5,051 nt of DNA from a virus (IMGVR_UViG_2563366929_000004), one strand, 5' to 3'; shown: positions 804 to 5,051, counted from the first letter of the stretch. Numbers and translations are program-made. The notes: generated by a model not told the origin, from the sequence alone.

Positions 804-884
804 GTTGGTTTTTCTCCACGGATTTACCGACAACCGAAGCCCTGACTGTTCCAGCAGTTGGGGCTTCACTGTTTTGATTTCTTT
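804..884 (+). ncRNA. Candidate sar-like antisense RNA covering the ant ribosome-binding site and start codon
   Basis: Extended -10 (TGcTATACT, 789..797) on the + strand just inside the ant 5' end. An imperfect hairpin (836..867, GAAGCCC/GGGCTTC core plus wobble-extended stem) followed by the T-rich ACTGTTTTGATTTCTTT lies about 30-80 nt downstream. P22 makes an antisense sar RNA at the equivalent position. The 804..1035 arc-ant spacer has no ORF longer than about 10 codons on the minus strand. Confidence 0.35.
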
Positions 885-1302: not shown

Positions 1303-1551
1303 ATGGCAAAGGGTGTGTCAATTTCTCCAACTACGGTAAGAATCCCTGAATCTTTACGCGAGGCTCTTGCTGTCAGAGCATCAAAAAATGGTCGCTCTGT
1401 TAACTCCGAGATCGTCATGATTTTGCAAGCCGCGATTGATGAAGATAGGTCGCCAAAGTCAGTTGAGTCATTTGCTCAGCAAGAAGCTGATAAATTCAAA
1501 GAGGCGCTACTTGAGACGCTAAAGACCATGTATGCTAAGGATGAAAAATAA
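1303..1551 (+). CDS. mnt: Mnt-like ribbon-helix-helix repressor (82 aa)
   Basis: ATG at 1303 with AAGGTG 5 nt upstream. MAKGVSISPTTVRIPESLREALAVRASKNGRSVNSEIVMILQAAI... aligns by eye with P22 Mnt, including a similar C-terminal helix (...LLETLKTMYAK). It is divergent from arc. The ORF-track start at 1261 is a TTG extension. Confidence 0.8.
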   Translation: MAKGVSISPTTVRIPESLREALAVRASKNGRSVNSEIVMILQAAIDEDRSPKSVESFAQQEADKFKEALLETLKTMYAKDEK

Positions 1552-2087
1552 TGCTGCACACAATTCATTTCTTATGCCCTGTTAACACTGCCACTGTTGG
1601 GCAACTTCAGAACCACTGTCTCACCGCATTATCTCAAGGCGCAACTGAATTAAATATCCATATATCAAGTCAGGGAGGGGAAACTGCTGCTGGCTTTACT
1701 GCGTATAACTTTCTTAAGTCACTCCCTGTTACCGTTAGAACTCACAACATAAGCAATGTTGAATCCATAGCTAATATCGTTTTCCTGGCTGGCTCAGAAC
1801 GTTTCGCAAACCCATTATCAAGATTCCTGTTACATCCTCTATTATGGTGCTTTGCCTCCCCAGCCGCCGACCATGCCAGATTGAGAGAGTACGGGAAATG
1901 CCTCGATAACGATCTTGATCGCTTCGTTGAGACGTTCAATATCGACATCGGAACCCATATTAGGTGGGCATCCCTGATAGCAGACTCGACCATTTTGGAT
2001 GCTAACAAGGCTCTTGAGCATGGCATAATTAATTCCATAAAAACTGCAAGGCTGGCATCCAATCAGGCAAACTGGTGGGTTGTTTGA
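1551..2087 (+). CDS. ClpP-fold (S14-like) serine peptidase homologue, 178 aa
   Basis: The ATG overlaps the mnt stop (TAATG), with AAGGA about 9 nt upstream. By eye, ...LNIHISSQGGETAAGFTAYNFLKSLPVTVRTHNISNVESIANIVFLAGSERFANPLSRFLLHP... aligns with the E. coli ClpP core (YINSPGG...GQAASMGAFLLTAG...RVMIHQP). The candidate catalytic Ser (ESIAN) and His (LLHP) are conserved; an Asp lies near the expected position. Confidence 0.7.
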   Translation: MLHTIHFLCPVNTATVGQLQNHCLTALSQGATELNIHISSQGGETAAGFTAYNFLKSLPVTVRTHNISNVESIANIVFLAGSERFANPLSRFLLHPLLWCFASPAADHARLREYGKCLDNDLDRFVETFNIDIGTHIRWASLIADSTILDANKALEHGIINSIKTARLASNQANWWVV

Positions 2088-2110
2088 TGGGTAAATCATG
2101 ATTACTCCTT

Positions 2111-2138
2111 ATAAAAAACCCACCTGACGGTGGGTTTA
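2111..2138. terminator. Bidirectional Rho-independent terminator between convergent genes
   Basis: The stem AACCCACC (2117..2124) / GGTGGGTT (2129..2136) with loop TGAC is flanked by an A-tract (2111..2118) on one side and a short T run on the other. It sits between the ClpP-like stop (2087) and the YafO-like stop (2136). Confidence 0.6.
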
Positions 2139-2585
2139 GTCAAACATAGTGTTTCTAAAGTCTCTCGCATACCCTGCTAACACTCTCATTCTATTATGAT
2201 TGTTAGCAGACATGTGAGCTACAGGATGAAAAAGAGCAATCAATGAATACCTGTTCTCATCAAAAAGATTTTGTGCATAAACGAGAGCGGTATTGGATGT
2301 TTTATGCCACTGCAACTTTTGCGGTGTGCTGATATCTGTGCCATTTTTTATTGGCTCAAATTTATTTTCACCAATTGCTAAATGAAGGTGCATAAGGCCT
2401 GCATCTTCAATATCAGGAGGTCGATGATAAGAGGTGTCTCTGCCAAAATAGCTGGGCAACGTTCCCGTAGACTTGTAGATGATAAAATCATCTACAAGTG
2501 TTTGTTTTAAATCAGGAAACTCAACAAAAACCGGGGAGAAAAAATAGTCAAAACTATCCTGATTATATTCCACGGTTACTTGCAT
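2136..2585 (-). CDS. YafO-family toxin homologue (ribosome-dependent mRNA interferase family), 149 aa
   Basis: ATG at 2585 with GAGGT 6 nt upstream. Blocks ...DDFIIYKSTGTLPSYFGRD..., ...LMHLHLAIGENKFEP... and ...ALVYAQNLFDENRYSLIALFHPVAHMSANNHNRM... match recalled E. coli YafO segments (FISYKRDGVLPDIFGRD, HIHLANENNPFPP, LVYCQGAFDEQAWLLIAILKPEPHKLARDNNQM). Not verified by search. Confidence 0.7.
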   Translation of the reverse strand: MQVTVEYNQDSFDYFFSPVFVEFPDLKQTLVDDFIIYKSTGTLPSYFGRDTSYHRPPDIEDAGLMHLHLAIGENKFEPIKNGTDISTPQKLQWHKTSNTALVYAQNLFDENRYSLIALFHPVAHMSANNHNRMRVLAGYARDFRNTMFD

Positions 2586-2593
2586 GTTTTACC

Positions 2594-3160
2594 TCAGTGG
2601 AAGTTACCAGAGTGAAACACACGAGTCCCGTGCTCAGCAAGCGCACGCAAACCAGCCATATCTACGGAACTATCAAAAACAACCGGAACACATGAGCGTT
2701 GTTTAATAAGACTATTCAGGTTGGTTACGGCAGATCTGGCATCAGCAACAACGATATAGATATCTCTTGCGATCTCTTTAAAATCAGCAGAAGCTTCTTT
2801 GAATACCGATTTCATTGCCCCTTCAAGTCCTCTCAATTGATGCTCTATCAATCGAGACTTTTCTGGTTCAATGATAGACAACACATTGTCTACATTCTCA
2901 TCGGTAGCGTTTGCAAGAACACGATAAGCGTATTTCAGCATTCGAGACAATTCTTTAATCGAAGACACCGCCTCATGAAGCTCATCATTAGCCCGTTCAC
3001 TGCTGAATGAGGATTGATGGTAAGCGTGCTGAACGTTATCAGTAACAACCACCTCACAACTGAACGCAGAAGCTTGCTGTAATAGCAAACCTATTGCGAC
3101 TCCAGCTTTGGCAGCGTTCAAGCTAAACATTTCATCAATCCCATTAGTCTCATTGCTCAT
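2594..3160 (-). CDS. Hypothetical acidic 188-aa protein, upstream partner of the YafO-like toxin; family unknown
   Basis: ATG at 3160 with AAGGAGG 5 nt upstream. The ORF-track start at 3190 is a TTG extension. Its TGA stop (2596..2594) lies inside the toxin RBS (TGAGGT), leaving an 8-nt gap. No YefM/Phd, RHH or HTH signature is recognisable by eye. Confidence 0.65.
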   Translation of the reverse strand: MSNETNGIDEMFSLNAAKAGVAIGLLLQQASAFSCEVVVTDNVQHAYHQSSFSSERANDELHEAVSSIKELSRMLKYAYRVLANATDENVDNVLSIIEPEKSRLIEHQLRGLEGAMKSVFKEASADFKEIARDIYIVVADARSAVTNLNSLIKQRSCVPVVFDSSVDMAGLRALAEHGTRVFHSGNFH

Positions 3161-3335: not shown

Positions 3336-3686
3336 GTGAATGCTCAGTCTGTCATCATGGTTTTCCTTGGGCTGATTGTCGCAAAACTATATCCAGACTG
3401 GTGGAAAGGGGCATTAGCTACTGTCGCCATCTATTTGCTTTTATCCATCGTTAAGCGATCACTCGCTGAGACCGTAAATCAAGCAAAACGTTTCTCATTT
3501 AAGAGTTTAATAAACTATGTTACTGGGCTTATTTTTTGCCTTTCAATTCTGATCGCTTCGGCTTTTTTGCCCGTATCAATAGCTAATTTTTTTGGCGCAC
3601 CATATGAGGTAGGTTATCTATTCTCTGTTTCCTGTCTTGCCATTGCTCTTCTTTACCTGTGGACGAGATCAAAGAATAAAAATTAG
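3336..3686 (+). CDS. Small integral membrane protein (116 aa, about 4 predicted TM helices), function unknown
   Basis: GTG start at 3336 with AAGGAGG (3324..3330) 5 nt upstream. Four hydrophobic stretches (SVIMVFLGLIVAKL, ALATVAIYLLLSIV, LINYVTGLIFCLSILIASAFL, VGYLFSVSCLAIALLYLW) and a basic C-terminus (RSKNKN). Divergent from the toxin operon. Confidence 0.65.
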   Translation: MNAQSVIMVFLGLIVAKLYPDWWKGALATVAIYLLLSIVKRSLAETVNQAKRFSFKSLINYVTGLIFCLSILIASAFLPVSIANFFGAPYEVGYLFSVSCLAIALLYLWTRSKNKN

Positions 3687-3703: not shown

Positions 3704-4845
3704 TTATTGAGCTTCTTTTTGTGATGCCTGTGCGACTCTGGTGAGCGATTGTGTGACCGTACTGATCGCTCTGTCATATGCTGTGCTACCTTTTGGCGTA
3801 TTTGCCAGACGTAACAAGGCATTTCGTATAACAGGGCTTTCGTATGCCTTCGCAGCTCCTCCTACGACACCAGCAGCAGGAACAACAAACGCAGCCGTTT
3901 TTAGCATCCCCGCTAATACTGCTGCGTTTATGATGCCACCACCAACTAACAATCCATAAAGCTGCTGACCATTTAAGTTTTGAACGTTCGCTTTTGCCGC
4001 GTGTCTTGTATCGTTGAGGTATTTAATAACGCCGTCCAGTTCCTTTCCATGTACGCCTTTAAAGAAAGTTGCTGATTGCTTCCTGTTCCGGTGTAACGCA
4101 TTAATAAACTTTTCAACACTAATATTTCCAGACGGATCAGTCGCCTTATCTACAGCATTCTGAACTATGGCTGCTCGTGCGTTTTGCCTACCATTGTCAT
4201 CCAGAAGCCTGTAAAGCTGAGAACGTTCTGATGGGTTTTGGCTAAAAACGAGTTTTGTTACATCCTCAGGTGTAGCCTTGCCGCTGGCTATTGCCTTTTG
4301 AACGCGCGTTCTTCCCATCATGTCATTGAATCTAGCCCATGAGCGATCAACCCTAGACATATTGGCAGCTTCTTCTGAGCCTAGTTTTTGGGATACTGCT
4401 TTTTTCATATCCGCTGTATATGCCTTGTAGACAATATCGCTGGCTTTCTGGAGCGTGTCTTTATCAACAGTCTCGTTTGAATTCATGAACCGCTTTCGAA
4501 GGTCAGTTCTGTTTTCTCTCGCCAGACGCAGGTCATTGGGTCCGCTGGTGATATCGTCTTTAAATTGCTGCAAGACTTTTACCGCGGCTCTATCCTGAGA
4601 TTTGCCCGGGCGGCTTAACACGGCAATCTGATTGTCGATAGCTTTTACCGTGTTTGAGAGATCGACAGGGGTATCCCCCATAGCGTCAATTATGCGGTTA
4701 TATCGCTTTCCTGCTGCCTCAATGAATTTTTGTTGCCCTTTAGTCGCAGATTCATAAAGCTGTTTATCAGAAATGCCACCCAGACCATCGCTAAATGTTC
4801 TGACTAAATTTTCTCGTGCTTGTTGTTGATTCAGCCGATTCTTAC
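3704..4845 (-). pseudogene. 5'-truncated gene for a large phage protein (possibly a gp16-like DNA-ejection protein), interrupted by the IS at 4845/4846
   Basis: The frame stays open from 3704 up through 4845 and into the IS inverted repeat; the first in-frame stop upstream (4871..4873) lies inside the IS. The first in-frame ATG is at 4681, the 325-aa ORF in the track. The C-terminal part has a Gly/Ala-rich hydrophobic stretch (LYGLLVGGGIINAAVLAGMLKTAAFVVPAAGVVGGAAKAY). The product call rests only on position relative to the immI genes. Confidence 0.5.
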
Positions 4846-5051
4846 TGAACCGCCCCGGGAATCCTGGAGACTAAACTTCCTGAGAAAGAGGTAAACAGGA
4901 TGACTAAAAATACTCGTTTTTCCCCCGAAGTCCGTCAACGGGCAGTCCGTATGGTTCTGGAAAGTCAGAGCGAATATGACTCACAATGGGCGACAATTTG
5001 TTCCATTGCTCCAAAGATTGGCTGTACGCCGGAGACTCTGCGTGTCTGGGT
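4846..5051 (+). mobile_element. Left end of an IS3-family insertion sequence (IS629-like), running off the window
   Basis: Terminal repeat TGAACCGCCCCGGGAATCCTGGAGA at 4846..4870, followed 29 bp later by the orfA start. It is the inverted counterpart of 12..36. Confidence 0.8.
4900..5051 (+). CDS. IS3-family transposase OrfA (IS629-like), N-terminal part; partial
   Basis: ATG at 4900 with AGAGG about 10 nt upstream. Translation [50 protein letters not shown] matches the recalled IS629/IS1203-type OrfA N-terminus with its helix-turn-helix region. Confidence 0.85.

Follow-up and report, generated by a model that had tools for sequence, protein, structure and literature searches.

A truncated ClpP-like gene carried by prophages as an accessory cassette behind the mnt repressor gene

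The 5,051-nucleotide (nt) stretch of viral DNA analysed here (IMGVR_UViG_2563366929_000004; hereafter, the window) carries, at positions 1303–2087, a Mnt-like repressor gene followed directly by a gene for a 178-amino-acid (aa) protein related to the protease subunit ClpP. We find that this clpP-like product joins a known family with one characterised representative, PpClpP1 of Pseudomonas plecoglossicida. Judging from comparisons of the loci that carry it, the gene is a mobile single-gene accessory element, or "moron", of many prophages and not a dedicated partner of Mnt. With moderate confidence, we picture its product as a phage-borne, truncated accessory ClpP that would be expressed in lysogens and would work, as PpClpP1 does, together with a canonical ClpP, here that of the host.

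The first line of evidence is the family placement. The 178-aa protein matched the Pfam family CLP_protease with 44.4 bits against a cut-off of 20.2 (E 2.2e-11; residues 24–165 on positions 37–180 of the 182-position model). This was the sole family in the Pfam scan, in which S49/SppA, NfeD and crotonase gave no match at E ≤ 0.1, so that the protein does not fall into a non-protease branch of the fold. Among the NCBIfam models, only those for ClpP or ClpP-like head proteases were matched, all well below their cut-offs: the ClpP models scored 19–40 bits against cut-offs of 228–361, and NF045542 (ClpP-related head maturation protease) scored 49.3 bits against a cut-off of 120. The best PHROG was phrog_94, "head maturation protease" (7e-21). 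By these profile scores, the protein is a divergent branch of S14, and the trimmed ClpP core with conserved Ser and His residues that the first-pass annotation had recognised in the sequence is borne out.

The catalytic residues were examined in an alignment of 28 homologues. Ser72 (codon 1764–1766) and His95 (1833–1835) were invariant, as was the SSxGG loop, and the two residues align with the catalytic Ser and His of Mycobacterium tuberculosis ClpP1 and with Ser73 and His96 of the Protein Data Bank (PDB) entry 9UXT. The triad is thus upheld for its Ser and His and not for an acidic third residue. When it is aligned by HMMER to M. tuberculosis ClpP1, the window protein has a gap, between Ser147 and Thr148, at the column of the catalytic Asp, and the family has Ser or Ala and no conserved acidic residue at this position, with Ser147 lying opposite Pro151 of 9UXT. 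Asp146 was considered as the third triad residue and rejected, because only the closest relatives have it and its counterpart in M. tuberculosis ClpP1 is an Asp outside the catalytic triad.

The N-terminal axial region, or gate, is absent, since the Pfam match begins only at model position 37 of 182. In the AlphaFold2 model (mean predicted local distance difference test score of 90.6), the chain opens directly with the first beta-strand (E2–7). Foldseek superposed this model on chain A of 9UXT (9uxt_A) with a template-modelling (TM) score of 0.93 and a root-mean-square deviation of 1.6 Å, and on Escherichia coli ClpP with a TM score of 0.82. Furthermore, the ratio of nonsynonymous to synonymous substitution rates (dN/dS) was 0.077 against an 80%-identical Pectobacterium orthologue, the one usable value, as dS was saturated in all other comparisons. 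This value indicates that the clpP-like gene is real, under purifying selection and functional.

Which characterised protein does the product resemble most? A PDB sequence search returned 9UXT as the sole outstanding match (E 1.6e-35, residues 3–175), with ordinary ClpPs at E 2.5e-7 or weaker. 9UXT is PpClpP1, an N-terminally truncated protein that forms a homotetradecamer (by cryo-electron microscopy and analytical ultracentrifugation) with an axial pore of 42.7 Å; of the residues in its Ser73-His96-Pro151 "triad", only the Ser and His are essential, the third being dispensable (PMC12900304). PpClpP1 hydrolyses Suc-LLVY-AMC with a peptidase activity 13-fold below that of its canonical paralogue, binds neither ClpX nor acyldepsipeptide (ADEP), and by itself degrades neither casein nor GFP-ssrA (PMC12900304). 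Together with the canonical ClpP (PpClpP2), it assembles into a stable hetero-tetradecamer that docks ClpX via its canonical ring and surpasses both homo-complexes in activity, and PpClpP1 degrades proteins only as part of this mixed complex plus ClpX; deletion of the PpClpP1 gene affects growth and motility of P. plecoglossicida (PMC12900304). Prophages are nowhere mentioned in that paper (PMC12900304). These properties cast doubt on the term "stand-alone", which the first-pass annotation had applied to the window peptidase, as its closest characterised relative degrades proteins only in the company of canonical ClpP and ClpX.

The likeness extends to length (178 versus 183 aa), the missing N-terminal axial region, the aligned Ser and His and the non-acidic third position. 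At the level of sequence, the window protein has every hallmark of the PpClpP1 type, with Ser147 for Pro151. The genomic setting is different, in that the window gene is a prophage cassette on the mnt operon, whereas the Pseudomonas-group genes lie in ordinary chromosomal neighbourhoods. With canonical ClpP (MEROPS S14; E. coli ClpP, 1YG6), the protein shares its fold, Pfam family, Ser/His pair and SSxGG oxyanion-loop motif; on the other hand, it is only ~20% identical and lacks both the catalytic Asp and the N-terminal gate and axial loops that contact ClpX and ClpA. In the two-isoform ClpP1P2 systems (Listeria, 4RYF; M. tuberculosis; P. plecoglossicida), a weak atypical isoform gains function when stacked on a canonical ring, and ClpP1P2-type structures were among the fold and sequence matches of the window protein. 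By analogy, the atypical isoform would here come from the prophage and the canonical ring from the host, unlike in those systems.

Within the window, the clpP-like gene (1551–2087, plus strand; the N-terminally truncated S14 gene with the 44.4-bit Pfam match) is the second cistron behind a ribbon-helix-helix repressor gene of Mnt type (1303–1551, plus strand; 82 aa; Pfam Arc, 9.5e-11; FitA-like ribbon-helix-helix, 2.1e-8). The surroundings are a genuine and complete P22-type immI region, with mnt divergent from arc-ant, with sar, and with additional cargo lying between mnt and gene 16. The overlap reported at first pass was confirmed in the sequence itself and in the list of open reading frames (ORFs): the mnt stop codon TAA (1549–1551) and the clpP-like ATG (1551–1553) share one base in TAATG. 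An AAGGA Shine–Dalgarno-like motif lies at 1537–1541, 9 nt 5′ of the ATG. The same zero-distance junction was found in the listed E. coli and Pectobacterium copies, and the Providencia copy has a spacer of 27–30 nt. Read from the overlap, translational coupling of the clpP-like gene to mnt is plausible, although the arrangement is not conserved in Providencia. The window Mnt gave no match to Repressor_Mnt (PF11423) at E ≤ 0.1; the Pectobacterium orthologue matched this model and the Providencia orthologue matched it weakly.

Could the peptidase be tied to the one repressor behind which it stands? Peptidase genes that are 97–100% identical to the window's at the amino acid level follow Mnt proteins with 100, 61, 53, 44 and 38% identity to the window Mnt, and P22-Mnt-like alleles are among these. 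The edges of the conserved DNA were located by the sliding identity of the window against seven other loci. Depending on the Mnt allele, identity climbs to ~100% at window positions 1470–1546, and it drops at 2100–2140, at a G+C-rich hairpin; for some alleles, of P22 type, the conserved DNA begins only ~5 nt 5′ of the clpP-like ATG. The cassette (1470–2140, plus strand) comprises the clpP-like gene together with the hairpin and a 5–80-nt piece of the 3′ end of mnt, and, because the conserved block can start ~5 nt before the ATG, it is without a promoter of its own. By these comparisons, the clpP-like gene is a discrete mosaic cassette that is met repeatedly in a form spliced onto the mnt end.

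The pairing with mnt is widespread. Among 5,426 complete E. coli genomes, 176 had a clpP-like match, including the avian pathogenic and neonatal-meningitis strains APEC O1 and S88. About 128 of these have at least 95% identity, and those sampled adjoin a gene annotated "Arc family DNA-binding protein"; a further 48 genomes carry a variant with 60–80% identity. The order mnt to clpP-like recurs with the same one-base overlap in a P22-like prophage of Pectobacterium (80% aa identity) and, with the longer spacer, in one of Providencia (66%). The adjacency about which the first-pass annotation had asked is therefore present in all three genera. Only six GenBank phage records have the clpP-like gene. 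One carrier is PhiR12_1, a lambda-like siphovirus of Escherichia, in which ant, a small ORF, mnt and the clpP-like gene stand between the tail-tip genes K and L (L083, 2525–4537); this immI-type module has moved into a different phage backbone.

In IMG/VR, the 80 best loci were surveyed. A Mnt gene lies directly upstream in 33 of them, remnants of the arrangement are found in three more (L136, L139, L151), and 43 are without Mnt. Two loci (L110, L112) have two or three Mnt-like genes in tandem 5′ of the same clpP-like gene, which suggests stacked immunity alleles. Truncated or interrupted clpP-like copies were seen in P22-like prophages at L136, L138, L139 and L151; of the copy in L139, the last 68 codons alone persist as an ORF, ~1.5 kb from mnt. 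The family as a whole comprises 524 clusters (50% identity) at E ≤ 1e-10 and only 8 at E ≤ 1e-30. The clpP-like gene is routinely misannotated, either as "ATP-dependent Clp protease proteolytic subunit" or as "head maturation protease", the latter being the GenBank label of the phiv205-1 copy.

Homologues with 44–75% identity stand alone, with no Mnt, at most genomic loci as well as at the 43 IMG/VR loci just mentioned. Their commonest slot lies just past Rz/LysC, on the strand opposite to the late genes, and was seen in Leclercia, Serratia, Klebsiella and a second E. coli variant, as well as in at least 21 IMG/VR loci. Elsewhere, the homologue sits in the early region of a Proteus prophage, within a Mu-like tail cluster in Pantoea, and between lysis and tail-fibre genes in Chromobacterium. 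The Klebsiella homologue (L093–L095) is annotated with 238 aa; the family alignment begins ~52 residues in, at an internal Met (MIHTVHF...), and the N-terminal extension is probably a start-codon miscall. In every locus inspected, the gene was in an immI or moron position, and in none of the loci examined was it between portal and capsid genes.

In phage lambda, bor sits after Rz. The positions and orientations of the clpP-like gene are those of accessory genes expressed from the prophage, like lambda bor or the genes of the P22 sieA region between genes 16 and 9 (PMC10883804). What differs is the cargo, which is a ClpP isoform and not a membrane exclusion protein or lipoprotein, and its splicing onto mnt without a promoter in P22-like phages.

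In many Massilia species and in the Pseudomonas putida group, relatives with 39–46% identity have ordinary chromosomal genes around them, as judged by Pfam scans of selected long ORFs; in the Pseudomonas group, the neighbours of the PpClpP1-type gene are a phospholipase D (PLD)-type synthase, a DUF72 protein and a CheB/CheR kinase. Such non-prophage neighbourhoods were seen in many Massilia (L005–L059), in many putida-group Pseudomonas (L041–L082) and in P. aeruginosa PA7, and they indicate that the family has a vertically inherited branch beside the prophage-borne one.

When would the clpP-like gene be expressed? P22 Mnt is a lysogenic maintenance repressor. Because the cassette has no room for a promoter of its own and Mnt of P22 is made in lysogens, the layout of the DNA implies that, in P22-like prophages, the clpP-like gene is almost certainly expressed in lysogens, being the distal cistron of a transcript that would run from Pmnt through mnt. 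According to the LF82 "Gally" paper, which mentions no Clp gene, a P22-like prophage of E. coli transcribes its mnt gene, with induction in macrophages; this lends weak support to clpP-like expression. A lysogen-expressed moron, which the first-pass annotation had offered as its alternative, fits all the context data.

We propose the following course of events. Temperate phages carry the clpP-like gene as a single-gene moron cassette, which in P22-like prophages is joined to the mnt end. There it would be expressed from Pmnt as a second cistron, its translation probably coupled to that of mnt. The product, truncated at its N-terminus, would be an accessory isoform of ClpP that works with Ser72 and His95 and lacks an acidic third residue. 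By homology to PpClpP1, it would be expected to form ClpP-type heptameric rings with an open axial pore, to be a weak peptidase alone and to dock neither ClpX nor ClpA. Most likely, it would then stack on the host ClpP ring, giving a hybrid ClpP to which the ATPase gains access through the host ring, and the lysogen would show altered ClpXP/ClpAP proteolysis. The oligomeric state, the weak activity and the pairing with host ClpP we infer from PpClpP1, and we place the formation of a hybrid specifically with E. coli ClpP slightly below an even chance. The growth and motility defects of the Pseudomonas mutant, the only source on this point, suggest an effect on host physiology.

Several observations weigh against this proposal. 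In the structural alignment, no more than 38% of residues are identical to PpClpP1, which makes hetero-assembly with E. coli ClpP an extrapolation, and the third triad position is Ser147 instead of Pro151. The consensus promoter scan did not locate Pmnt. The truncated remnants in P22-like prophages indicate that the gene is dispensable to the prophage. Finally, the site beside a YafO-type toxin, in the gene 16–gene 9 stretch where P22 has sieA, fits a role in defence equally well.

Such a role would make the product a superinfection-exclusion or anti-phage effector, a lysogen-expressed protease that, alone or with host Clp, destroys a protein of the incoming phage or triggers abortive infection. 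The gene is placed between mnt and gene 16, inside the gene 16–gene 9 stretch that holds sieA in P22-like phages (PMC10883804), and a P22 clone with sieA, orf59a and mnt has been described (PMC10883804); furthermore, a YafO-type toxin pair adjoins, the slot past Rz/Rz1 on the strand opposite to the late genes is typical of lysogen-expressed accessory genes, and the spread over unrelated prophage backbones is typical of defence morons. Against this, PADLOC-DB 2.0 contained no defence family matching the peptidase at E ≤ 0.1, and nothing relevant was found among its five neighbours. No literature tying the clpP-like family to defence was found, the chromosomal homologues of the P. putida group and Massilia sit among housekeeping genes, and deletion of the P. 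plecoglossicida homologue affects growth and motility. We consider defence unlikely as the function; it is a biological role that could coexist with a hybrid-ClpP mechanism. A similarly small probability attaches to an autonomous, gate-less peptidase whose open-pore homo-tetradecamers would trim peptides or unfolded chains without host ClpP or an ATPase. The missing N-terminal gate and the hydrolysis of Suc-LLVY-AMC by PpClpP1 homo-tetradecamers with their 42.7 Å pore are in keeping with it, but PpClpP1 alone is weak, degrades neither casein nor GFP-ssrA and is surpassed in activity by the mixed complex.

The first-pass annotation had also compared the pair with ImmR/ImmA switches, in which the genes for a repressor and a protease are co-transcribed in that order, as in ICEBs1 and phage phi105. 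A dedicated protease of this kind would cleave Mnt (or Arc, or Ant) and thereby set ant expression and prophage induction. Co-orientation and overlap with mnt and the recurrence of the pairing in three genera would suit such a switch, and the last 12–26 Mnt residues, which travel with the cassette in several alleles, can be read as a shared recognition tail. The shuffling of near-identical peptidases among Mnt alleles as little as 38% identical to the window's, together with the many contexts without Mnt, leaves this reading unsupported: with P22-type alleles, the conserved DNA reaches no further than ~5 nt 5′ of the ATG, at least five Mnt alleles precede the same gene, and homologues in lambdoid, Mu-like and other prophages have no Mnt, Arc or Ant nearby. 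In addition, PpClpP1 is unable to degrade proteins by itself. ImmA is a metalloprotease of another fold and an unrelated family, and ImmA and ImmR form an obligate pair, whereas the window peptidase has been swapped among repressors and mostly lacks any repressor neighbour. We consider a dedicated switch quite improbable. Still less credible is the view of the gene as a relic without function, left by a ClpP-type prohead protease that had been acquired from another phage. The head maturation proteases (NF045542, PHROG 94) are likewise phage-borne, ClpP-fold serine proteases without an N-terminal gate; they provide the best phage-family matches and the label of the phiv205-1 copy, and truncated copies exist. 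However, the head-protease score is below the family cut-off, the dN/dS is low, Ser and His are invariant across genera, and the gene occupies lysogeny or moron positions and not a portal-protease-capsid module. To our knowledge, moreover, P22-like phages mature without a prohead protease.

The remaining features of the window were mapped from ORF, Pfam and Rfam readings. On the minus strand, divergent from mnt, lie arc (1036–1188; 50 aa; Pfam Arc, 5.1e-12; annotated in E. coli S88 as "Arc family DNA-binding protein"), then a 57-aa ORF (866–1039; phrog_17642, of unknown function), the end of which overlaps the arc start region, and then ant (3–803; P22_AR_N/C domains), the 3′ end of which is cut off by the window. 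P22 itself is not known to have such an ORF between arc and ant. The sar antisense RNA is present at full length between ant and the 57-aa ORF (804–870, plus strand; Rfam RF00262, 83.9 bits against a gathering score of 43, E 3e-17), with its terminator-like hairpin at 836–867.

The 114-bp arc-mnt intergenic control region (1189–1302) contains a perfect 12-nt inverted repeat, GATAGCAAAGTG / CACTTTGCTATC, at 1227–1238 and 1268–1279, with the arms 29 nt apart. In the promoter scan, this repeat flanks a leftward promoter-like site, TTGACT-17-TATCTT (1253 to 1225), and a third, 80% copy lies over the mnt start codon at 1303–1317. By analogy with P22 immI, from which the operator and promoter roles are taken, the three copies may serve as operators for Mnt or Arc, although their spacing is unusually wide.

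Beyond the clpP-like gene, the hairpin (AAACCCACC-TGAC-GGTGGGTTT, 2116–2137) stands between this gene and a convergent yafO-like gene. Folding gave −18 to −18.8 kcal/mol (z of about −2.8 to −3.0) on both strands, with a U-run 3′ on the minus strand, and confirmed a hairpin that the consensus promoter scan had overlooked owing to its T-run rule. The YafO-family toxin gene (2136–2585, minus strand; Pfam, 3.4e-22) has a 188-aa partner 8 nt upstream (2594–3160, minus strand), which has no Pfam or NCBIfam family, matches only phrog_8416 and is not a YafN-type antitoxin. The two may be an atypical toxin-antitoxin or defence pair in a moron slot; the pair is not present where the clpP-like cassette occurs in other elements.

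A predicted membrane protein of 116 aa is encoded at 3336–3686 (plus strand), between the toxin pair and gene 16, and a 125-aa homologue (5e-27) occupies the same position in a Pectobacterium P22-like prophage (L086). We considered it as SieA but did not assign it that name, as it is without the FxRYPxEAxxFNK motif given for SieA in PMC10883804. An IS3-family insertion sequence (~4845–5051) breaks the homologue of gene 16, which encodes a DNA-ejection protein, and the window's prophage copy is therefore probably defective; its mnt-clpP cassette is intact. Numerous E. coli strains, APEC O1 and S88 among them, have chromosomal prophage DNA that matches the window with 100% identity, and the matches of these two end at 4845. 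In S88, the region belongs to a P22-like prophage beside tRNA-Arg and intS and is flanked by the tailspike gene and DNA-ejection genes.

What do these results mean for the phages that carry the gene? Our searches of the literature on prophage- or phage-encoded ClpP and ClpP-like anti-phage proteins, and on RefSeq WP_000903306, found nothing on the clpP-like gene. Nor did we find the family described before as an Enterobacterales prophage moron in lysogen-expressed slots, including the precise mnt splice. The gene is more than an annotation curiosity, yet it is not a new kind of system. The 2026 work on PpClpP1 is reframed, in that the family of this "divergent ClpP1" is, in Enterobacterales, carried largely by prophages, and the moron placement yields a testable hypothesis of phage-supplied ClpP isoforms. 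If the product were a simple accessory peptidase, the result would usefully correct the annotation and provide a clear case of a moron joined to the operon of a repressor.

The wider prospect, which we hold as speculative and rather doubtful, is that temperate Enterobacterales phages deliver their own ClpP ring to cap the host ClpP heptamer, producing a hybrid, one-sided and open-ended ClpXP/ClpAP that reprograms host proteolysis for the prophage. ClpXP and ClpAP control phage and host regulators such as lambda O, the Mu repressor, antitoxins, RpoS and SOS proteins. A hybrid protease might, for example, speed the removal of replication or regulatory proteins of superinfecting phages or tune induction. 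This would amount to lysogenic conversion of the proteostasis machinery, a role that we did not find described for a prophage gene in the literature searched. An isoform of ClpP that is brought in by a phage and becomes part of the host protease would, if true, represent a new route of lysogenic conversion and a natural, trans-encoded ClpP1P2.

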